Below are positions 3,021 through 13,222 of a stretch of DNA of 13,222 nt, one piece after another. This DNA comes from Gemmatimonadota bacterium (lineage in GTDB: Bacteria > Gemmatimonadota > Gemmatimonadetes > Palauibacterales > KS3-K002): assembly GCA_020344375.1 (NCBI GenBank), contig CP070823.1:1613706-1626927 (forward strand), given 5' to 3'. The notes below the pieces were generated by a model. That model saw only the letters and a program-made list of their open reading frames with translations. It had not been told where the DNA came from and searched no databases. The first letter of the stretch is position 1, and every line of letters begins with the position of its first letter. Made by a program: the position numbers and the translations under genes.

Positions 3021-3307
3021 CTCGCCATAACAAGCTCCTGTGGAGCGGCGCCTCCCGCGACCTGCAGCACCCCGCCTGTGACCTTCCGGACATCATTGGC
3101 TGCATCGCCGTATGATCCCGCAGCTTGCGGGAACCGGCGAGGAACCTCTCGATAGCCCTTGAGGGAAGTGAAGATGTGGCCTACGTAGCAACGGCCTACG
3201 GCAAGCATGGTCGGCTGGGCACCAACGTCGGCTGCGGCGCTGTTCCGGACGGCTGAGCCTTGCGGGGCGCACGCCCAAGAGCTACATTGCGAACAACAAC
3301 AGAGATC

Positions 3308-3427: not shown

Positions 3428-4897
3428 TTGTTACAGAATACAAGCTCTTTCGGCATCGGGGTTCTCGACGAACGTCTGAGCGGTCCCGTCTCCGGTGGCC
3501 TGCACGTGGTCATCGGCGGCCCGGGCACCGGTAAGACGGTCGTCGCGCTCCAGTTCCTGTACGAAGGCATCCGGCGGGGCGGGCGAGTGGCGATGCTGAC
3601 GCAGGCGCGGCCCGGAGACGTGGTCGACCTGGCGGCCTCCATCGGCATTGATATGACGCCCCACCTGCGCTCCGGTCGCTGGGTGCTGCTAGGCTATCAG
3701 TCGGGGTTCCGCGAGCGCTACCGCCGTAGCATCGAGCCCGGCGAGCTGTTCCAGGAGCTGGAGGAGTTCGTCACAGCCGAGGCCGTGCCCGATCGGCTCG
3801 TCATCGATACCTGCAGCCCGCTGGTGGAGTCCCGCGAGTCGGGGAACGGGGCGGAGCATCTGATTGACCTGCTGAGCGGCGTGAGCAGCACCGTGCTGCT
3901 CACCTTCGCGGCCGAGCACCCCGGCGCGCTGGACAGCGGCTTCGATCTTATCTCGCAGCGCGCGGCGCTCGTGCTCCATCTGATACTGAGCAGCGAGGGG
4001 CGCCGCGAGATCCTCGTGCGCAAGACCCCGGGGCCCGTTGAGTCGACGGGCCCCATCACCTTCGAGATCCGCGACGGGCTGGGGATCGTGCCGGCGCAGG
4101 CGATCCAGGGGAAGCGGCGCAGCGACCTGGCGCCGGAGGTGCGGCGCCGCGTGCTGTTCGTTGACGTGCCGGCCGATCTGCCGGCGGAGCTGCGCATCTG
4201 GCTGCAGGAGTCGTTCGAGCTGGTCTACACCGCCGATCCCGTGGATGCCTTCCCCGAGCTGGCACGTCGCGACTTCGGTCTGGTGGCCATCCACATCGAC
4301 CGGCGTAGCGTGGACCGCGGGCTGCACGTGATGTATCAGCTCCGCCGCGCCGCTAGCCGGCCGCCCATCCTGGTCATGTCGCCGGTCGATGTGCGGGCCA
4401 GTGACCGGGCCCGCGCGCTACGCGCCGGTGCGGACGACTTCATCTCCGGCGGCCTCGATCCAGAGGAGCTGGCGTCGCGCATCGAGGCGTTGCTGCGGCG
4501 CGGTCGCACCGATGTCGCCGATGGGGAGGAGACCCTTGAGGCGCCGAAGCCAGAGCGGCCCGAGGGACCCGACGAGCCGGCGGACGTGCATGAGATCATC
4601 CGCGCGCGACTCACGTCGCCGGGATCGCCGATCTTCTCGCTGATCTTGCTGCGGGCGGGCAACGGCAGCCGACTGGAGGAGCTGGCCGAGCACGTCGCCC
4701 GGCAGATGCGGCATGATGGTGGCGACCGCATGAACGTGAGAGAGGAACGCGTGGAGGTCTACTTGCACGGCGCGATGCACAAGCACGCCGAAAGCTTCCT
4801 CAAGCGCGTGCGCACGGATCGCTTCGCGCGGGTGGGCGCCGTGGTTTACACGTCACCCACCGACCGTGACGAGCTGCTCAAGATCATCGACCAGTAG
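3428..4897 (+). CDS. Three-domain regulatory protein, 489 aa. It has an N-terminal KaiC/RecA-like P-loop domain (~1-230) in which the catalytic Glu-Glu pair is substituted. A degenerate CheY-like receiver domain follows (~238-360). The C-terminal ~110 aa domain is unrecognised.
   Basis: 'SSFGIGVLDERLSGPVSGGLHVVIGGPGTGKTVVALQFLYEG' matches the KaiC/RadA N-terminal motif with Walker A GGPGTGKT. The Walker B-like 'RLVIDTCSPL' corresponds to KaiC 'LFILDASPD'. The segment 'VAMLTQARPGD' aligns with KaiC-CI 'VFVTFEETPQD', so E-E becomes Q-A. The receiver region is 'RRVLFVDVPADLP ... LVAIHIDRRS ... PILVMSPVD ... GADDFISGGLDPEEL'. It has the acidic pocket residue, the candidate phospho-Asp in 'IHID' and the Ser of beta4, but lacks the conserved Lys of beta5 (K to G). 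Start is TTG 3428, since an in-frame TGA at 3410-3412 blocks any upstream extension; there is no obvious SD. The stop is 1 nt before the next start. Confidence 0.85.
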   Translation: MLQNTSSFGIGVLDERLSGPVSGGLHVVIGGPGTGKTVVALQFLYEGIRRGGRVAMLTQARPGDVVDLAASIGIDMTPHLRSGRWVLLGYQSGFRERYRRSIEPGELFQELEEFVTAEAVPDRLVIDTCSPLVESRESGNGAEHLIDLLSGVSSTVLLTFAAEHPGALDSGFDLISQRAALVLHLILSSEGRREILVRKTPGPVESTGPITFEIRDGLGIVPAQAIQGKRRSDLAPEVRRRVLFVDVPADLPAELRIWLQESFELVYTADPVDAFPELARRDFGLVAIHIDRRSVDRGLHVMYQLRRAASRPPILVMSPVDVRASDRARALRAGADDFISGGLDPEELASRIEALLRRGRTDVADGEETLEAPKPERPEGPDEPADVHEIIRARLTSPGSPIFSLILLRAGNGSRLEELAEHVARQMRHDGGDRMNVREERVEVYLHGAMHKHAESFLKRVRTDRFARVGAVVYTSPTDRDELLKIIDQ

Positions 4898-4898
4898 C

Positions 4899-7064
4899 AT
4901 GGCTGAAGTACGCTGGCCCTACTGGGGACGTTTCACTGCGCTCGCCGCTGTCTCGCTGAGCCTGCTCCTCTTCTTCGTCTTCGGGTTTCTTCCCCAGCGA
5001 TTCCTGCTCGAGCTCGACTTCAGCGAGAGCGGGTTCGCCTATCCGGTCATCCGTTCGCCCCTGCCAACGCCGCCGATCCCACCGCCCGCGCCGGTGCAAC
5101 GGCCCGTGGCGCGCGGCCCGGCGGAACGCTTCTGGGCGGAGTACCTGCCGCTGGTTCAGGCCGGCGCTGATGAGGCGGCGCTGGGGCTCTTGCGCGCCTA
5201 CCTGGCTCGTCAACCGGAGGACATGGGGGCCCAGCTCGAGTACGGGCGTGCGCTCTGGCGGTTGGGTCGGCTAGATGCCGCGATCGGCGAGTATCGCCGC
5301 GCCCTCGCCCGCGCGGGGGACTCTGAGCTCAAGAGAGAGCTGGCGCGGCTCTACGTCACTGCCGGTCGCTGGGCTGAGGCCCTGGCCACCTACAAAGCCC
5401 TCGCGAGCGCGGCGCCGGATGATCTTGAGCTGCTGCGCGAGTACGCGCAGACGGCGACCTGGGGCGCGCGCTACGAACTGGCGGTTCAACTCTATGCGCG
5501 ACTCGTGGAACTCGACCCGGATGACGCGTCGCTGCGGCTCGAGTGGGCGCGCGTCCTCTACTGGTCGGATCAGCCAGAGCTCGCCGCGGAGGTCCTGGAT
5601 GGGTTGCCGGCCGGTCATGCCGGACCTGGTTTCGACTCGCTGCGGGCGGCGATCGTTGCGGCGCTGCCGCCACCGGATACGGCGACTCTGAGCCTGCTGG
5701 AGCGCGCCCGCGGCCTGGCGCTGGCGGGCGACGTAGCGTCGGCGCTGGCGATCTACCGGCTGCTAATGAGCGAGGGGCTGGCGGCCGACTCGCTGCTGTT
5801 GGAGATGGCGGACGTCTTCGAGTACCGGGCGAACGCGCCGGACAGCGCTCTGAGCTACCTGCGCGCCTACCTGGCTCGTCACCCGGACGGCAACGAGGTG
5901 CGGCTACGCATGGCCCAGCGGCTCGCCTGGTCCGGCCGGCTCGCTGAGGCGGAGGCGGACGCCGAGGCCATCCTGCGGGTGCAGCCGGAGAATGCCGAGG
6001 CCTGGGCGCTGCTGGGAGAACTGCGTCGCTGGCGTGGTGATCGTGCGGGCGCGGTGGAGGCCTATCAACGGTCGTTGGACCTCACCCCGGACGAGGCCAC
6101 GGCCGCTGAAGGCCTCGCCGCGCTCCGCGCGCAGGTGGATGCCGAGCTTTCGGCGCAGGGCAGCATCGGGCCGGCGAGCGGGTTCGAGTACTTCGCCGAC
6201 TCGGACGAGTTCAGTCTGGCACGCTGGCGCGCCGGCTGGACGGCGGGCGTGCCACGGACGCGGGGCGGCGTAGAGGTGGCGCTGGAGCGGCTTGAGGGCT
6301 TCGAGCTGACGGGTGAGCAGGATGGATTGACCGCCGCCGCCGCCCGGGCCGTAGGTGAGCGCTGGTGGCTGGAGGGCGGCCTGCACACGACGGCCACGCT
6401 GGGCGCCTGGGTTCCGGAGTCGGGCGCGCAAGCGCAGCCGATCATCGGGCTGGTGCTGGCGGCGCCGAGCTGGGGCGGCGCGTCCTATCGCTTCGAATAC
6501 CGGCGCGAGCCCGCCTACCGGGAGACGGCGACGCTGGAGGCGGCAGCGGCCGAGCTGCGCGTCGACGTGGCCGGGCTCGAGACCTATCGCCCGATCGCGG
6601 AGCGCTGGGACCTGTCGGCTCGCGCCCGCGTGGCCCGCTTCTCCGGCGTCGGCGACGCCAACCTGCGGGGCGACGCCGCGCTGGGCGTGTTCTTCCGTCC
6701 GGACGCGAGGTGGATTCTCGGGTTCGAGAGCCGTGGGCTGACTTTCGGCGATCCGGCGCCGCGCCCCGGGCGGCGACTCTACTGGGACCCGAACTGGTCG
6801 TGGGAGAACACGCTGCTCGTCGCCTGGCGCGGGGCGCCGGCCCCGGGCTGGGAGCTGGAGGCCCGAACGACTCCGGGCCTCGCCTGGCTGGACGAGCACG
6901 AACTCGACCCGACCGTTGTCTTCGTGTTCGGGGCGACCCTGGATGCCCGTTATCGGGTGGGCGTCTGGACGCTGCAGGGACGTGCCGGCTTCAGCCAGAG
7001 CCGGGCCGGCGGCTACCGGGTCTTCCGCCTGGAGCTGGGGCTGAGCCGCGGGTTCGGAGGCTAG
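4899..7064 (+). CDS. PgaA/BcsC-like exopolysaccharide export protein, 721 aa from ATG 4899. It has a signal/anchor helix, a Pro-rich linker, multiple TPR repeats (~80-420) and a C-terminal predicted beta-barrel porin domain (~430-721). The track ORF starts 33 nt earlier at GTG 4866.
   Basis: TPR-like repeats are 34-aa helical units, e.g. 'AQLEYGRALWRLGRLDAAIGEYRRALA', 'AEAWALLGELRRWRGDRAGAVEAYQRSLDLTPDE' and the recurring 'LRAYLARQPED/LRAYLARHPDG'. The C-terminal third shows alternating hydrophobic/polar dyads with aromatic girdle residues and an aromatic-rich end ('VFRLELGLSRGFGG'), typical of outer-membrane beta-barrels. ATG 4899 lies 1 nt after the upstream TAG, i.e. coupled. The N-terminus is hydrophobic (AAVSLSLLLFFVFGFL). 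Confidence 0.8.
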   Translation: MAEVRWPYWGRFTALAAVSLSLLLFFVFGFLPQRFLLELDFSESGFAYPVIRSPLPTPPIPPPAPVQRPVARGPAERFWAEYLPLVQAGADEAALGLLRAYLARQPEDMGAQLEYGRALWRLGRLDAAIGEYRRALARAGDSELKRELARLYVTAGRWAEALATYKALASAAPDDLELLREYAQTATWGARYELAVQLYARLVELDPDDASLRLEWARVLYWSDQPELAAEVLDGLPAGHAGPGFDSLRAAIVAALPPPDTATLSLLERARGLALAGDVASALAIYRLLMSEGLAADSLLLEMADVFEYRANAPDSALSYLRAYLARHPDGNEVRLRMAQRLAWSGRLAEAEADAEAILRVQPENAEAWALLGELRRWRGDRAGAVEAYQRSLDLTPDEATAAEGLAALRAQVDAELSAQGSIGPASGFEYFADSDEFSLARWRAGWTAGVPRTRGGVEVALERLEGFELTGEQDGLTAAAARAVGERWWLEGGLHTTATLGAWVPESGAQAQPIIGLVLAAPSWGGASYRFEYRREPAYRETATLEAAAAELRVDVAGLETYRPIAERWDLSARARVARFSGVGDANLRGDAALGVFFRPDARWILGFESRGLTFGDPAPRPGRRLYWDPNWSWENTLLVAWRGAPAPGWELEARTTPGLAWLDEHELDPTVVFVFGATLDARYRVGVWTLQGRAGFSQSRAGGYRVFRLELGLSRGFGG

Positions 7065-7067
7065 GCG

Positions 7068-8381
7068 ATGCGAAGTCGGCGTCCGTTCCTGCTCGTTATA
7101 GCCGCGGCGATCATCCTTGTTATCGGCCTCCTGCTCCTGGTCTGGGCCAGCCGGGCGCCGCTCGAGGTGCAGACGTTCATCGTGCGGCTCTCGATCGTCA
7201 CGCTGGTTCTGTTCCTGGTCATCCTCATCGCCCGCTACTTCACGCTGCTCTGGTTCGGCTACCTGCACCACCTCGAGTCGGGCGCTGAGGCGCCGCGGAA
7301 CGGGGTGGAGTATCCGCCGGTCTCGCTCCTCGTGCCGGCCTATAACGAGGGGAAGGTGATCGAGTCGGCGCTGAAGAGCCTGCTGAAGCTCGACTACCCG
7401 CACTACGAGATCATCGTGGTGGATGACGGCTCGACCGACGACACGCTGGCCAATGCCTCGCGCATGGCCGGCGGGTACGGGGGTTGCCGGGTGCGGGTGA
7501 CGACGAAGAGGAACGGCGGCAAGGCGACCGCGCTGAACGCGGGGCTAGCGATGGCTGAGTATCCCATCGTGCTCTGCATGGATGCCGACTCGCGGCTCGA
7601 ACCAGGTACGCTGAAGTCGGCGGTCGTGCACTTCCGCGATCCGTCGGTAGGCGCGGTGGCGGGCAACGTGAAGGTGGTGAACCGGCGGAACCTGTGGACG
7701 CGGCTGCAGGCACTCGAGTACGTCGAGGGCCTCAACATGGCGCGACGCGCGCAAGGGTTCCTCAACGCGGTGAACATCGTACCCGGGCCGATCGGGCTGT
7801 TCCGGCGCGAGGTGCTCCTGGCAGTGGGCGGCTACGAGCGCGACACCTTCGCCGAGGACGCCGACCTCACGCTCAAGATCCTCACGGCCGGCTGGAAGAT
7901 CCGCTACGAGCCGAAGGCGGTCGCTTGGACGGAAGCGCCGGAGCGGCTGGTGGATCTCATCCAGCAGCGCTATCGCTGGACGCGCGGGATCCTGCAGGCG
8001 CTAGGCAAGCACAAGCGCACGCTCGTCTTCCCACTGCCGGATCTACCGCTCTGGCTGTCGCTGGTGCAGATGGGGTTCGAGGCGGTCGTCTGGCCGGCGA
8101 TGAACGTTTACGGCCACCTGTTCTTCGCCTACGTGGCGATCGCCTTCGGATTGGGTGAGATGCTGCTGGCGTGGTGGGTGCTGCTCACGCTGCTCGACCT
8201 CGTGGCTGCGCTGGCGAGCGTCGGTATGGAGGAGGAGCAGCTGTCGCTGGTGCCCCATGCGCTGGTCTATCGTTTCTTCTTCATTCTGTTGATCGATGTC
8301 GTGAAACTCTGCTCCACGCTGGAGGAGGGCCTCAACCTGCGGATGGGCTGGGGGAAACTGGAGAGGGTGGGACGCATATGA
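7068..8381 (+). CDS. GT2-family processive beta-glycosyltransferase (polysaccharide synthase) of the PgaC/IcaA/NodC/HasA type, 437 aa. TM helices flank a cytoplasmic catalytic domain.
   Basis: Canonical synthase motifs are present: 'VSLLVPAYNE', 'IIVVDDGSTDDT' (DDG/DXD), 'CMDADS' (DAD), 'GNVKVVNR', 'FAEDADLT' (ED) and 'QQRYRWTRG' (QxxRW). Two N-terminal and several C-terminal hydrophobic helices. Length matches PgaC/IcaA (~410-440 aa). SD GGAGG lies 7 nt upstream, and the ATG is 3 nt after the TPR gene stop. Confidence 0.9.
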   Translation: MRSRRPFLLVIAAAIILVIGLLLLVWASRAPLEVQTFIVRLSIVTLVLFLVILIARYFTLLWFGYLHHLESGAEAPRNGVEYPPVSLLVPAYNEGKVIESALKSLLKLDYPHYEIIVVDDGSTDDTLANASRMAGGYGGCRVRVTTKRNGGKATALNAGLAMAEYPIVLCMDADSRLEPGTLKSAVVHFRDPSVGAVAGNVKVVNRRNLWTRLQALEYVEGLNMARRAQGFLNAVNIVPGPIGLFRREVLLAVGGYERDTFAEDADLTLKILTAGWKIRYEPKAVAWTEAPERLVDLIQQRYRWTRGILQALGKHKRTLVFPLPDLPLWLSLVQMGFEAVVWPAMNVYGHLFFAYVAIAFGLGEMLLAWWVLLTLLDLVAALASVGMEEEQLSLVPHALVYRFFFILLIDVVKLCSTLEEGLNLRMGWGKLERVGRI

Positions 8382-8671
8382 GCATCATCCAGATCATGGT
8401 GACGATCATCATCGTGACCATCCTGGTCACGGTGATCCTCGGTGTGGCTTCCTACGGCGCCTACTGGCTGCGTCGCGGTCGGCGCCCGGCGCCGCCCGTG
8501 GCGGTGGATACGAGGCCGCGCTTCTTCTACCGCTACGTCCCTGAGGATCAGGTTGCGGCCGAAGACACAGCAGCCGGGTCGGAGGTCGCGTCCGAGTCCG
8601 GCGAACCGGAGTCAGTGCCGGAGCTGGCGGCGAGTTCCGCCGATGCCGGGAATGGCCGGTCGCGTCGCTGA
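8378..8671 (+). CDS. Small single-pass membrane protein with an acidic disordered tail, 97 aa: MSIIQIMVTIIIVTILVTVILGVASYGAYWLRRGRRPAPPVAVDTRPRFFYRYVPEDQ.... Candidate accessory subunit of the synthase (PgaD/IcaD-like by position). The track lists it within a longer 8171-8671 ORF.
   Basis: ATG 8378 overlaps the synthase stop (ATGA at 8378-8381), the classic coupling seen for pgaC-pgaD and icaA-icaD. The N-terminus is an Ile/Val-rich TM helix, followed by a basic stretch and then an Asp/Glu/Ser-rich tail. Nothing upstream of 8378 in this frame is needed. Confidence 0.55.
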   Translation: MSIIQIMVTIIIVTILVTVILGVASYGAYWLRRGRRPAPPVAVDTRPRFFYRYVPEDQVAAEDTAAGSEVASESGEPESVPELAASSADAGNGRSRR

Positions 8672-10526
8672 GCCTCCAGGCCCGCGCACGCCCTGGACGT
8701 GGGCCGGCGCGATTCTGCTGCTGGGCACGCTGGTCGCCGGGCTGGTCGGCGCGGCGATCCTGCTCTGGCGTTTCATCGACGTCGATGCGCTGCTCGAAGC
8801 GAACGATGAGATGCCGCCGTCGGTCGAGGAGGTGGTCGCCGAGATCGTGCTGCCGGAGCTCCCTGCGACGGTCGCCTGGACGGCGTACCTGTACGAGTCC
8901 CCGCGCTCCGCTCGCTTCTTTCCCAATCAGGACTACTACTCGGCCTTGCTGGTTCGCTGGGGTTCGTTGCTCGAGGTTGTCGGCGCAACGGTTGAGCGCG
9001 TCTCCGGTGCAGCGGCCATCGATTCCCTCGGCCAGGGCGAGCTGCTGGTGATGCCCGCCGCGGTCTGCTTGGACGACGAGGAGCGAGATGCTCTGCTCCG
9101 CCACGCTGAGCGGGGCGGTCACATGCTGGCCACCTGGGCGCTGGGCGCACGCGACGAGGAGTGCGACTGGCTGGGGTACGAGTTCCTGAGGGACGTGGCC
9201 GGCGCCGAGACGGCCGGGACCCTGGAAGGACGACCTCCCACCTACCTTGTAGCTCCGCACGGCAGCGTGATCGCGGCCGGCCTCCCCCCTGGCTCACGTA
9301 TCGAGCTCAGAACCGAGCCGTGGATCACGCTGCGTGCGCACGCATCGAGCGTCTTCTGGTCCGACTGGGCGCTCAACCCTCGGCCGGCGCCCGAGGGCGG
9401 TGCGGGCGGCGCGGCCCTCGCCCATAGGCTCGATTCCGGTGGTCGCTTCACCTGGTTCGGCTACCGGGTCGATGTCGCTGCCAGCGAACCCGACCAGCGT
9501 CTTGTCGATCGCCTGGCCCAGAACGCGGCGCTCTGGGCGGCCGGCCACGTAGTGGCGGACGTGGATCCCTGGCCGGGTGGCTACGAAGCCGCGATGGCCG
9601 TGACCCTGGACGTGGAGCACAGCTTCAGGAACAGCCGGCGCCTGGCACGGCGCTTCGGTGCCATCCACGTCCCCGTCACCTTCTTCGTCGTGACCCAGCT
9701 CGCCCTTGAGCATCCCGAGCTCGCCCCTGCGCTCCGTGCTGTGGGCGAGATCGGCAGCCACAGCGTCGACCATCGCCAGATTGCCGGCCGGAGCTGGAAC
9801 ACCCAGCTGGCGGGTGCGAATCAGGCGCGAGCCGACATCGCGGCCTGGTCCGGCGATCTGCCCCTGGGATTGCGACCGCCGCGTGAGTTGTTCGACTCGC
9901 TGACGCTGGAGGCGTGGCGGCGGTCCGGCGGCACCTACCTGGCCGCGTCGAACGGCGCGCGCAGTGCCGCTCCGGACATCTTCGACGTTGAGTCGGGCGC
10001 GATTGTCGTGTTGCCGCGCGTCGTGGACGATGACTACACGGTGATAGTGACGCGCGGGCAGACCCGGCCGGATTCGTTGCGCGCCGCGTTCGCGAGCGGG
10101 CTCGAGAAGATGAGGTCGCTCGGTGGTCTCGACCTTGTCACCCTGCACACCCAGCTCGTCGATTCCGATCGCCGCCTGGACGCGTTGGAGTCGGTGGTCC
10201 GTCTGGCCCAGGAGGCCGGTGATGTTTGGATCGCTGGCGCGTCCGAGATCGCTGACTGGTGGATGCAGCGCGCCGGGCTCGAGCTAGGGGTACGGGAGCG
10301 CGCCGACCGCAGCGCGATCCTCTGGGTCCACAATTCCGGAACCGAGCCCGTGACCTCGGCCTGGCTTCGCATCTATCTGCCGGGGGAGCGCGCGACCTAC
10401 GCGGCCCCGGAAATCGGCGAGGTCATCCCCGAGTCCCACTACGGTCCCTGGGGCCTGCGGGTGAGGCTGCCGATAATCGAGCCGGGTGAGTCCCTCGGGA
10501 TCCTTCTGCCTCGGCGCGCCGGCTGA
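8643..10526 (+). CDS. Membrane-anchored two-domain protein, 627 aa from ATG 8643. It has an N-terminal TM helix, an unrecognised ~280 aa extracytoplasmic domain and a C-terminal CE4/NodB-type polysaccharide deacetylase domain of the 'DVE' motif-1 variant. It is the candidate PgaB/IcaB-equivalent. The track ORF starts at GTG 8442.
   Basis: CE4 motifs: motif 1 variant 'AVTLDVEHSF' (the T-[LV]-D-V-E-[DH] form seen in EPS-locus deacetylases, instead of TFDDG), motif 2 'GSHSVDH' (H-S-x-x-H) and motif 3 'LRPPRELF' (R-x-P-[YF]-like). The TM helix 'WAGAILLLGTLVAGLVGAAILLW' directly follows M-8643/M-8652. The first 200 nt of the track ORF overlap the upstream gene in another frame and are not needed. 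Stop is TGA 10524-10526. Confidence 0.8.
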   Translation: MPGMAGRVAEPPGPRTPWTWAGAILLLGTLVAGLVGAAILLWRFIDVDALLEANDEMPPSVEEVVAEIVLPELPATVAWTAYLYESPRSARFFPNQDYYSALLVRWGSLLEVVGATVERVSGAAAIDSLGQGELLVMPAAVCLDDEERDALLRHAERGGHMLATWALGARDEECDWLGYEFLRDVAGAETAGTLEGRPPTYLVAPHGSVIAAGLPPGSRIELRTEPWITLRAHASSVFWSDWALNPRPAPEGGAGGAALAHRLDSGGRFTWFGYRVDVAASEPDQRLVDRLAQNAALWAAGHVVADVDPWPGGYEAAMAVTLDVEHSFRNSRRLARRFGAIHVPVTFFVVTQLALEHPELAPALRAVGEIGSHSVDHRQIAGRSWNTQLAGANQARADIAAWSGDLPLGLRPPRELFDSLTLEAWRRSGGTYLAASNGARSAAPDIFDVESGAIVVLPRVVDDDYTVIVTRGQTRPDSLRAAFASGLEKMRSLGGLDLVTLHTQLVDSDRRLDALESVVRLAQEAGDVWIAGASEIADWWMQRAGLELGVRERADRSAILWVHNSGTEPVTSAWLRIYLPGERATYAAPEIGEVIPESHYGPWGLRVRLPIIEPGESLGILLPRRAG

Positions 10527-10693: not shown

Positions 10694-10963
10694 GTGAAAT
10701 TCGACGAAGACCCGAGAATAAGAGTTAGCCGGAAGATCCTCGCGCTTGCCTGGCTCTTCTTCAGCCTCTATCTGGCCGCCATCATGGGCCTGTCCTTCAA
10801 CGTGGGCACAGAACCTTACCTCTGGGGACTGCCACGCTGGGTGGCGATCGGCAACATCATCGTTCCTGTCGTCTTTGTACTCCTGCTGATCTTCGTCGCC
10901 GAGAGGTTCATACCCGACGTGCCCATGACAGAGGACACGGGGGACACAGAGGAAGAGCGATGA
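10694..10963 (+). CDS. Small 2-TM membrane protein, 89 aa, of the kind found upstream of SSS-family transporters (DUF485/YjcH-like or DUF997/YhdT-like). Probable transporter accessory subunit.
   Basis: GTG start, with strong SD AAAGGAGG at 10679-10686. Two hydrophobic helices (LALAWLFFSLYLAAIMGL; VAIGNIIVPVVFVLLLIFVA) and an acidic C-tail. The stop overlaps the start of the downstream symporter (ATGA at 10960-10963), the arrangement typical of yjcH-actP and yhdT-panF pairs. Confidence 0.7.
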   Translation: MKFDEDPRIRVSRKILALAWLFFSLYLAAIMGLSFNVGTEPYLWGLPRWVAIGNIIVPVVFVLLLIFVAERFIPDVPMTEDTGDTEEER

Positions 10964-12420
10964 ACTGGGCAATCGTCTCTTTTCTCGCTTATACAGGAAT
11001 ACTGATCGCTATCGGAGTCTGGTCCTACCGGATTGTCGAGAAGGTCCCGATCACCAAATACGAGAATGAATTCTACGCGGCGGGTAGAGGCCTGGGCGGC
11101 ATCGTGGTTGCGCTGATCATAGCTGGTGGGTTGGCCAGTGCGGGGACCTTCATCGCTGGACCGGGCATGACCTATGCCTACGGATATTCCTGGGTCCTGA
11201 TCAACAACTTCCAGATCTTCATGAACCTGCTGCTCCTGGCTCCGATCGGCATCATTGTCGGGATCGTGGCGCGCAGGGTGAATGCGGTCACCTACCTGGA
11301 CATCTTCAGGGCTCGCTACCAGAGCAGGGCGATCATCGTGATCCTGACGCTCTTCGTGACCGTGTTCTTGTTGCCTTACATGGCCACTCAGTTCGTGGGG
11401 GCCGCCAGAGTCATCGCTCGGATGACTGGGATGGGTTACCTGGCTTCCCTGGCTCTCGGCTCACTGGTGGTCCTGGTCTACTGTGTTCTGGGTGGCATGC
11501 GAGGTACATCGCTTGCGACTCTGATTCAGGGCATCGTGATCACGCTTGGATGCATCGTGCTGTTCGTCGGAACCGTCGTGTACGCCGGCGGATTCCAGCG
11601 GTCGACCGAGATCCTGGCTGCCCAGGACATCAACTTCCTCTCACCGAGCATGGGTGGTGCTTTCCCGCCCATGTTCGCCTTCTCGCTCGCCTGCCTGACA
11701 GGCTATTTCATCGTCGGCATGCCGCACGCGATGTTAGGGGCGCTGACCTACAAGAACACGAGAGCGCTCAAGCGAGGCATCTGGATGGGCGCGATTCTGG
11801 TGCTTCTCTGGACACTGCTCTTGTGCATGGCCGGGGTCATCGGACGCTCGCTGGTGCCTGACCTCGCTGTGCCGGATGAGATCGCTCCCTGGCTGGCCAT
11901 GCACGTGGTACCGGAGGCGCTGGGCGGCATCGTCTTGGCGGGCATCGTGGCCGGCATCCAGACCACAGTGGCGGCCATGGCGATCATCATCACCTCCAGC
12001 ATCGCCAGTAACCTCTTGAGAGAGCTCAAGCCGGATGTTTCGGCCGAAAGAGTAAAATTCGCCTCCAGGGTCACCATGGGAGCCTGCCTGGCCATAGCCA
12101 TAGGCTTCGCTCTGCTGCAGCCTAGGCTGATCCAGTGGATCATCTTCTTTTCGATAGGCGGACTGGTCACCGCCACCTTTGGGCCGATACTCCTGGGGCT
12201 GTTCTGGAAGCGTGGGAATCAGTGGGGCGCCATAGCCTCGATATGCTGGGGGATGGTCATCTACGGGCTGGGAAACACGGTTGTGCCCCAGATGAGTCTC
12301 TGGGGCACGCATCCCTCCTTCGTTGCCGTGATCAGCTCGGTGATCGTCTACGTTCTGGTCAGCTCGGCGACGCCTCCCCCATCAGAAGAGATAGCCCGGA
12401 CCTTTTGGGGAAAGCGGTGA
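10960..12420 (+). CDS. Sodium:solute symporter (SSS) family transporter, PutP/PanF/ActP-like, 486 aa with ~13 TM segments.
   Basis: Polytopic membrane protein with SSS hallmarks: an N-terminal 'FLAYTGILIAIGVWS' helix, then 'FYAAGRGLGGIVVALIIAGGLASAGTFIAGPGMTYAYGYSW' (the GR-x-LG / G-x-x-xG core of SSS TM1-2), and a Gly-rich TM set throughout. Translationally coupled to the small 2-TM gene upstream. Confidence 0.9.
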   Translation: MNWAIVSFLAYTGILIAIGVWSYRIVEKVPITKYENEFYAAGRGLGGIVVALIIAGGLASAGTFIAGPGMTYAYGYSWVLINNFQIFMNLLLLAPIGIIVGIVARRVNAVTYLDIFRARYQSRAIIVILTLFVTVFLLPYMATQFVGAARVIARMTGMGYLASLALGSLVVLVYCVLGGMRGTSLATLIQGIVITLGCIVLFVGTVVYAGGFQRSTEILAAQDINFLSPSMGGAFPPMFAFSLACLTGYFIVGMPHAMLGALTYKNTRALKRGIWMGAILVLLWTLLLCMAGVIGRSLVPDLAVPDEIAPWLAMHVVPEALGGIVLAGIVAGIQTTVAAMAIIITSSIASNLLRELKPDVSAERVKFASRVTMGACLAIAIGFALLQPRLIQWIIFFSIGGLVTATFGPILLGLFWKRGNQWGAIASICWGMVIYGLGNTVVPQMSLWGTHPSFVAVISSVIVYVLVSSATPPPSEEIARTFWGKR

Positions 12421-12441
12421 GAGCTCCCGGCTCGTCGGCGC

Positions 12442-12629
12442 CTAGTGTTCGACTACAGTAGTGATGACGCGCAGAGAGGGGACGTCGGGGACGGTGGGGG
12501 AATCCTCTCGCTTCATGTCGCGCTGTGTGGGGCCGCGACTGAGGACGGGCCGGGGCGCTCCCAATGTCTGCTCTGAGGATCCCCTGCCGTCCCAATCCCC
12601 GCCTCATGACCACTGTGGTCGAACATTAG
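12442..12629. repeat. ~188-bp element bounded by 26-bp imperfect terminal inverted repeats: ctagtgttcgactacagtagtgatga at 12442-12467, and its reverse complement tcatgaccactgtggtcgaacattag at 12604-12629. MITE-like, or a long structured RNA / bidirectional terminator between convergent genes.
   Basis: Read directly: 22/26 identical positions. Two of the four mismatches would be G-U wobbles as RNA, giving 24/26 pairs. The interior is GC-rich with G-runs (ggggacgtcggggacggtggggg), C-runs and a nested gagagg...cctctc repeat. The right arm overlaps the stop codon of the minus-strand MBL gene. It sits at the right edge of the low-GC transporter island. Confidence 0.4.
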
Positions 12630-13222
12630 TGCGGCAGCGGAGTCCGCGTCCCCAATCCTACGTCCACGAAGTCCTGGCCGTAGACCTCCCTGAAGATCTC
12701 GATCGCCTCGTCGCCGGTGCAGTGCGTCGCCGCGGCCCGGCGCACCCCGAGCTCCTCCTTCATCATCCGGGCGAGGTCTGTGACATATTCCGCCGAATAG
12801 GGGCTGAGGTGGAAGCCTCCCGTGACGAGCTCGACGCCGGCACCGGTCGCCCGCTTGGCCTCCTTCACGATCTCCTCGATGCCGCTGTGTGAGCAGCCGG
12901 AGATCAGCACCAGCTCGCCGCCCTCCGTCTCCAGGGCGAGCGAGAGCTCCGGCAGATTGACCAGCCTCGGCTCGTCTTCGTTCGGTGGGTAGCGCCAGAA
13001 ATAGCCGGTGTGCGGGGAGGTGGTGTATATAAGGTGCACCCCCTCTTCGACCTCCTTGTTCGCGCCGACGAACTCCATGTTATCGGTCCGATAGCGATAG
13101 CCGGGCCGGTATTCCCTTCCTTCCTGCACATTGTAGCCCAGGTACCCATCATCTGGAACGTACAGGCGGACGGACGGATTCACTTCCAGCAGGTAGTCGA
13201 GCCCGGCCGTGTGGTCGCCGTG
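12626..13222 (-). CDS. Metallo-beta-lactamase-fold hydrolase (COG1237-like). Only the C-terminal ~198 aa lie in the window; the gene continues past the window end at its 5' side.
   Basis: Extending the track ORF in frame to the window edge gives 'HGDHTAGLDYLLEVNPSVRLYVP...'. The HGDH is the tail of the MBL H-x-H-x-D-H zinc motif. Later 'LISGCSHSGIEEIV' and 'ATHCTGDEAIE' match the conserved C-terminal His/Cys/Asp ligand regions of this family. Stop is TAA on the minus strand (12626-12628). Confidence 0.8.
   Translation of the reverse strand, partial: HGDHTAGLDYLLEVNPSVRLYVPDDGYLGYNVQEGREYRPGYRYRTDNMEFVGANKEVEEGVHLIYTTSPHTGYFWRYPPNEDEPRLVNLPELSLALETEGGELVLISGCSHSGIEEIVKEAKRATGAGVELVTGGFHLSPYSAEYVTDLARMMKEELGVRRAAATHCTGDEAIEIFREVYGQDFVDVGLGTRTPLPH

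Follow-up and report, generated by a model that had tools for sequence, protein, structure and literature searches.

A 188-bp hairpin between convergent genes of a Gemmatimonadota bacterium as a probable MITE with IS630-type ends and several orientation isomers

The long near-palindrome that separates two convergent genes of a Gemmatimonadota bacterium (assembly GCA_020344375.1) is, with a probability of roughly 90%, a non-autonomous DNA transposon (MITE) with ends of the IS630/Tc1-mariner type. This assignment is based on comparison of the 13,222-nt stretch analysed here (contig CP070823.1, positions 1,613,706–1,626,927; below, the window) with related contigs, genome and metagenome collections. 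The element is shorter than approximately 500 bp and lacks coding capacity, possesses terminal inverted repeats (TIRs), lies in a duplicated target for which the empty counterpart is available, and has a transposase-bearing partner. Thus, among the several readings offered in a preliminary description of this locus the MITE-like one was borne out: copies exist elsewhere, TA within CTAG is duplicated, close relatives keep empty sites, and an insertion sequence (IS) of the IS630 family carries the same ends.

The near-palindrome occupies exactly the 188 bp assigned to it before, with the arms in the expected places: CTAGTGTTCGACTACAGTAGTGATGA at positions 12442–12467 and TCATGACCACTGTGGTCGAACATTAG at 12604–12629. 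The left arm differs from the reverse complement of the right one at four of 26 positions, which reproduces the 22/26 match claimed for DNA, and two of these four mismatches become G-U pairs on the plus strand, which gives 24 of 26 pairs in RNA, as had also been stated. In a repeat search the arms reached 50 nt each, with 72% complementarity and 88 nt between them. The left arm is present in the window only once (0 expected from 200 shuffles) and no other copy of the element was found within these 13 kb. Folding of the region 12421–12650 gave a single long rod continuing beyond the terminal stem, with predicted energy of −126.4 kcal/mol for the plus strand (z = −5.43, not equalled by any of 200 shuffles) and −109.8 kcal/mol for the minus strand (z = −4.54). 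The G-tracts (12478–12500) and C-tracts (12578–12603) noticed earlier are indeed there and pair with each other in the predicted rod, and the right arm does overlap the TAA stop codon of the MBL-fold gene. The motif gtccccaatcc near 12648, which had been described as recurring just outside the element, is located in the MBL coding sequence and does not belong to the element, because it is also present in element-free relatives (L071/L072; here and below contigs are designated by L-numbers). Open reading frames across the element, which measures 178–188 bp in different relatives, are long overlapping frames having no family matches. Its parts are listed in Table 1.

Table 1. Parts of the element and adjacent features, in window coordinates
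Feature	Position	Strand	Basis or comment
Sodium:solute symporter gene, upstream flank, outside the element	10960..12420	+	Pfam SSF, E = 2.5e-48
Whole feature, MITE with both CTAG target copies	12442..12629	.	188 bp; inverted repeat, rod fold, filled versus empty site
Left copy of the inferred TA duplication, within the left CTAG (12442-12445)	12443..12444	.	Empty/filled comparison and IS630-family behaviour
Element proper between TA copies, 182 bp, start GTGTTCGAC, end GTCGAACAT	12445..12626	.	Empty-site comparison; IS ends in L110, L094
Left TIR, presumed transposase-binding end, CTAGTGTTCGACTACAGTAGTG	12442..12463	+	Match to IS end in L110/L094
Right TIR, reverse complement CTAATGTTCGACCACAGTGGTC	12608..12629	-	Same end in L073, L078, L053 and IS copies
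Arm alpha, 55 nt	12442..12496	.	89% identical to L073 left arm
Core, 88 bp, bounded by GGGGAATCCTC and GAGGATCCCC	12497..12584	.	Inverted versus L073/L130 form
Arm beta-prime, 45 nt, complementary to alpha	12585..12629	.	82% to L073 right arm; 87% to reverse complement of L066 left arm
MBL-fold gene stop codon TAA, from right-hand copy of duplicated target	12626..12628	-	ORF end

Contigs with the same gene order were reached via close homologues of the symporter (SSF) and members of their clusters, and the SSF-MBL gene pair was found on nine related contigs. Two types of sites were observed there. In the empty ones (L071/L072 and L125/L126), whose flanking genes are 90–93% identical, only 31 bp lie between the genes, and the sole CTAG there provides the MBL stop codon with its TAG. 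In the filled ones (the window, L066–L070/L129, L073/L130/L057/L104 and L127/L128) the element of 178–188 bp is placed exactly at this CTAG, bordered by CTAG on the left and by CTAG (L073), TTAG (window) or CTAC (L066) on the right. As judged from these alleles, CTAG-element-CTAG opposed to an empty site with only one CTAG is the signature of transposon insertion with target duplication, for which the preliminary description had suggested looking. Since CTAG is palindromic, duplications of 2 bp (TA) and 4 bp (CTAG) look the same in the sequence, and it is by analogy with the behaviour of the IS630 family that we infer TA to be the duplicated unit. The MBL stop codon is provided by the right-hand copy of the target and its position is unchanged throughout the filled alleles; translated alleles terminate in PLPH*, PLPQ*, PLPR* or PLPD*. 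A neighbour-joining tree of the flanking genes has the topology ((((L127-type, L073-type), L066-type), L071-empty), (window, L125-empty)). The nearest relative of the window is therefore empty, which means either repeated insertion into this site or two precise losses of the element. More distant SSF orthologues (P0004, P0009 and P0017, 83% identical) were tried as a guide to the ancestral state and set aside as uninformative, because the SSF-MBL pair is missing there.

A partner with the same ends was found by scanning metagenomes for the terminal repeat with the pattern CTARTGTTCGACYACAG. Most of the 46 matches turned out to be coding-sequence look-alikes devoid of an inverted partner; one of the 46, in L110, has CTAGTGTTCGACCACAGT together with its imperfect inverted copy 1190 bp apart (L110:57-1246), and the two enclose a transposase of the IS630 family. 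The protein scored 123.5 bits with NCBIfam NF033545 (cutoff 100) and matched Pfam DDE_3 (2.5e-21) and HTH_32 (3.8e-17). A copy of this IS with 99.5% identity is found in L094, and L090 has a more distant relative (72%) that shares the end. The IS end in L110/L094, CTAGTGTTCGACCACAGTAGTA, coincides with the left terminal repeat of the window at 20 of 22 positions, or at 21 of the first 22 when the last base is disregarded, and the consensus end CTAGTGTTCGACCACAGT is common to all copies. CTAG adjoins all IS copies, while CTAG or its one-base variant adjoins every copy in the whole set (window, L066, L073, L127, L078, L053, L110, L094 and L090). It is known that IS630-family elements insert at TA, which becomes duplicated (PMC2170065), and IS630 itself favours the TA of 5'-CTAG-3', according to papers of Tenzen and Ohtsubo as cited there. 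Beyond the ends the interior of the element has no similarity to the IS, and the full-length IS copies, all from metagenome contigs, contain 51–58% G+C versus 66% for the window. No transposase gene was found within the 13-kb window or in the approximately 20-kb flanks of the relatives. A search for homologues of the transposase collected over 8000 relatives, most of them located on contigs about 1.2 kb long.

The IS copies have some features of their own. In L110 and L094 the frame is interrupted by a stop (AE*HG instead of the AALHG of L090), and, as far as the sequence tells, these may be dead copies. In all three (L110:57-1246, L094:1-1106 and L090:1-1100) the HTH and DDE parts are joined only by a −1 shift at a conserved TLKK / LKPW junction. 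The same place of the shift in copies that are only 72% identical suggests programmed frameshifting in these IS630-type elements. The transposase frame closes with ...TTVVEH* within the terminal repeat, where the TAG of the target CTAG serves as its stop codon.

Related copies were also registered outside the SSF-MBL site, on metagenome and MAG contigs; the preliminary description had proposed looking for dispersed copies in the same genome. One of them, L078:2066-2243, again sits at CTAG, between unrelated flanks, and over 142 nt shows 95% identity with the L066 form. It originates from the same JGI metagenome sample as L070 and L057, and is placed between a GDSL lipase gene (minus strand) and a trypsin-like peptidase gene (plus strand), i.e. 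between divergent genes; for this reason the family is not tied to 3'-ends of convergent genes. Another one, found in a Chloroflexota MAG (L053:2969-3100), is 132 bp long and has the same ends of 17–19 nt with CTAG on both sides, while its interior, also hairpin-forming, is wholly different. It is thus the ends rather than the interior that define the family, as expected if ends are what the transposase recognises. The interior of the L053 element is a different palindromic repeat (GTCATTCTGAG...GAAGAATCCG), and a similar sequence is located about 40 nt downstream of the element (3139-3175, within the region L053:2969-3180), so that one repeat family may be nested there inside another. The pattern used for scanning the genome collection, TGTTCGACYACAGTRGT, was too strict at its inner end and gave 65 single matches. 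Of these 63 were discarded as chance or coding ones, for instance a conserved LFDHSG-type stretch in Gemmatimonadota MAGs L014 and L045, and only L053 and L057 were real. High copy number is a usual trait of MITEs; this particular element was found at only two loci in exact-match scans of public collections.

Taken together with the known behaviour of the family, these data allow one to assume the following scenario. A transposase supplied in trans would recognise ends of approximately 20 bp with the consensus CTAGTGTTCGACCACAGT, on which it presumably acts, and the element would be pasted into the TA of the CTAG holding the MBL stop codon TAG. Repair would then duplicate TA and rebuild the stop codon at the same position, so that neither flanking gene was damaged. 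The long hairpin would be simply the shape of this element family, with arms complementary over about 50 nt. Internal flips, arising presumably by recombination between the arms or with other copies, would generate isomers, and the extended complementarity of the arms, which makes the element prone to such flips, may explain why four isomers are met at one site.

A hairpin of this stability in such a position might also have been co-opted as a functional RNA, serving as a bidirectional terminator, a 3'-end stabiliser or an RNase target for two convergent genes, a role on record for REP, ERIC and Correia elements, so that its origin from a transposon becomes secondary. The predicted fold is very stable on both strands and the rod is kept in all isomers, the element lies in the 3' untranslated region of both genes, and its core is 93–95% conserved, as compared with 84–93% in the flanking genes. 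It is also known that MITE hairpins in transcripts are substrates of RNase III and RNase E (PMC10969869). An effect on the two mRNAs, for example hairpin-dependent protection of 3'-ends or cleavage by RNase III, is by this analogy possible. However, the stem is not followed by a U-run on either strand, nor was a terminator-like site detected, two related lineages devoid of the element manage with the 31-bp spacer, the sister copy in L078 is located between divergent genes rather than at 3'-ends, and no Rfam family was matched. We consider such a co-option doubtful, though worth keeping in mind. Two more specific versions of this idea, both present in the preliminary description, fared worse. 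A giant hairpin terminator received no support: a search for a stem followed by a U-run found none on either strand of 12300–12800, and the stem is followed by TGCGGCAGCGG on the plus strand. A processed sRNA is disfavoured by the lack of matches in Rfam 15 (whole window with gathering thresholds, region 12350–12720 with E ≤ 10), by the variable orientation of the element among relatives and by the position of the sister copy. Neither a sigma-70-like promoter on either strand of 12300–12800 nor tRNA or tmRNA genes were detected by the corresponding scans. The elevated conservation of the core could reflect, judging by the alignments, either a recent spread from a common pool or a selected function.

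Four orientation isomers were observed at the SSF-MBL site, where the core, the interior or the whole element is flipped. If the arms are designated alpha and beta, with primes for their complements, and the core is taken as in the window, then the window form reads alpha, core(+), beta'; the L073 form reads alpha, core(−), beta'; and the L066 form reads beta, core(+), alpha'. Against the L073 core, that of the window shows 93% identity when the former is reverse-complemented and 56% when it is read forwards, while the arms of these two forms align forwards with identities of 89% and 82%. With L066 the window core is 95% identical in the forward direction, and the entire L066 element corresponds to L073 read as its reverse complement (identity of 88% overall and of 96% over 142 nt). 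The fourth form, L127/L128, is closest to L073/L130, with flanks identical by 96–99%; the outer 16–19 nt are kept on each side and everything between two GTGATSAC motifs is inverted. Thus, relative to L073 there are three nested flips, of the core, of the interior and of the whole element. The alpha arm carries a short tandem duplication GGGGACGTC GGGGACGG (12478–12497), common to the window and the L073 form. The 178-bp forms (L066, L078 and L127) lack about 11 nt of it, and it is the presence or absence of this duplication that accounts for the difference between 188 and 178 bp. The interior of L127 is devoid of the 11-nt duplication that its sister has, and its core has the GGCG variant met also in the L078 copy. 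This is a slender hint, coming from two shared substitutions, that the interior was replaced from another copy and not simply flipped in place. All isomers are predicted to fold as rods on both strands with −93 to −114 kcal/mol and, being similarly stable, favour no strand or orientation at the RNA level. An assembly chimaera as the source of the flipped core in the window was considered and rejected by reasoning: the edges of the core share, by eye, a perfect inverted repeat of only about 10 nt, shorter than typical assembler k-mers, and the window core has its own substitutions.

With isomers of this kind at hand one can imagine that repeated recombination or template switching between the arms, complementary along their whole length, inverts nested segments at different depths of the stem and makes the element a self-contained flip-flop cassette, whose unusually well-conserved core is a payload, such as an orientation-dependent RNA or protein-binding site, switched relative to the convergent genes; we regard this as unlikely. 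A programmed invertible switch (inverton), in which a site-specific recombinase flips the core or the whole element and alters expression of the neighbours, appears quite improbable. It would be compatible with the four isomers at the same site and with co-occurrence of L127 and L130 in one sample (JGI 3300057017) on contigs with flanks identical by 96–99%, and Correia elements are a reported case of MITE inversion in place (Elbeyioglu et al. 2017, cited in PMC10969869). Yet the breakpoints differ, falling at the G-run on the core edge, at the GTGATSAC motifs and at the termini, and a single recombinase site would not fit three such levels. Besides, the element has no sigma-70-like promoter, no recombinase gene was noticed in the window or in the relatives' flanks examined, the isomers are fixed differences between diverged lineages rather than mixtures demonstrated within one population, and the interior of L127, which differs from that of its nearest relative in lacking the 11-nt duplication and has the GGCG core variant in common with L078, fits replacement better than a clean flip. 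An IS5-family MITE targeting CTAG with duplication of all four bases, like MITEPsy1 among the known CTAG-duplicating IS5-related MITEs (PMC3189936), would leave a 4-bp duplication compatible with the sequence at this palindromic target, but is hardly tenable, as the only full-length elements with these ends encode IS630-family transposases scoring above the NCBIfam equivalog cutoff and none of those found encodes a DDE_Tnp_1 transposase of the IS5 type.

For the MITE with IS630-type ends, which we prefer, the genomic neighbourhood offers a simple account of the landing place. The stop codon of the symporter gene lies 21 nt before the insertion, and the convergent MBL-fold gene (12626-13222, minus strand) runs off the window end; its orthologue in L066 matches Lactamase_B. 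CTAG is scarce in the window, with 15 occurrences versus 41 expected from mononucleotide composition or 23 from a Markov model, and several of them coincide with the ends of listed ORFs, for instance at 668 and 7061. Landing on a stop codon is therefore unsurprising, and elements targeting CTAG in this genome would often do the same.

Some other peculiarities of this neighbourhood were registered. The cluster 3428-10526, upstream of the symporter gene, is kept in all relatives and looks like an exopolysaccharide synthesis module; its products are a KaiC-like ATPase bearing a receiver domain, a large TPR protein, a glycosyltransferase of family 2 and a polysaccharide deacetylase. Members of the symporter-homologue clusters include two labelled Gemmatimonadota bacterium and Gemmatimonas sp. 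SM23_52, by which the window is assigned to Gemmatimonadota. Homologues labelled Latescibacteria, KSB1, Aminicenantes and Desulfaltia are 81–84% identical, which is unusually high across nominal phyla and, at the level of sequence, points to horizontal transfer or loose labels of MAGs. In L071 a lineage-specific insertion of 1.6 kb (L071:4125-5734), which neither the window nor L066 has, separates the genes for the polysaccharide deacetylase and DUF997; it contains a CTAG cluster at 5154-5612 and a 356-aa ORF on the minus strand. This insertion was considered as a candidate partner IS and discarded, the product of its ORF having no NCBIfam match.

Several consequences may follow. For annotation, a conspicuous hairpin becomes a transposon remnant rather than a regulatory RNA. 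The signature CTAGTGTTCGACCACAGT links MITEs of Gemmatimonadota and Chloroflexota to IS630-type elements abundant in environmental metagenomes. Targeting of CTAG would let such elements land on TAG stop codons harmlessly, since the duplication rebuilds them. The isomers at one site represent a natural case, outside Neisseria, of MITEs reshuffled in place, which matters only if orientation affects the neighbouring genes.

By its kind the element is an ordinary IS630-family MITE, i.e. belongs to a previously known type. Like IS and MITEs of this family (IS630 and ISY100, Tc1/mariner superfamily), it has TIRs of approximately 20 bp and is inserted with duplication of TA in CTAG; the cut-and-paste logic is alike, and the partner IS is about 1.2 kb long with an HTH + DDE_3 transposase (NF033545). 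What distinguishes it is that these terminal repeats and the 88-bp core matched no named element in the sources compared, to which ISfinder did not belong, that the MITE interior shows no relation to the IS found, and that the host phylum, Gemmatimonadota, is little studied with respect to MITEs.

ERIC/IRU and REP/BIME repeats of enterobacteria resemble the element in being intergenic palindromes, often placed at 3'-ends of genes and able to affect mRNA stability. REP units are short palindromes (tens of nucleotides, about 20–40 nt), clustered, linked to RAYT (IS200/IS605-like) and devoid of TIRs and target duplication. The element in turn has TIRs, the TA/CTAG duplication and an IS630 partner, and no RAYT-like gene was found within the 13-kb window. 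The REP/BIME reading of the preliminary description thus gives way to the anatomy of a cut-and-paste transposon, in which a single 188-bp unit has TIRs, the TA/CTAG duplication and IS630-family ends. Small hairpin-loop inversions of chloroplast non-coding DNA show recurrent flips between short inverted repeats, which create orientation differences among close relatives. These inversions are not transposons, whereas in our case a MITE provides the inverted repeats as its arms and further copies may serve as donors.

Similar in appearance are Correia elements of Neisseria (CREE/NEMIS), which are 100–200 bp long, have TIRs of 26 bp, duplicate TA and form long hairpins. They share no sequence similarity with the element described here. 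Where Correia elements reach hundreds of copies in a genome and are equipped with promoters and an IHF site, our element is known from two loci only and revealed no promoter motif; its flips are nested at three levels of the stem. Their subtypes are distinguished by which end sits on which side, much as the isomers are here, and it has been reported both that the subtype at a given locus switches between strains by recombination between copies (Siddique et al. 2011) and that these elements invert in place (Elbeyioglu et al. 2017), the two papers being cited in PMC10969869. By analogy, Correia elements are the nearest described parallel to the four isomers of the SSF-MBL site, and isomer switching of this sort has a precedent in them.
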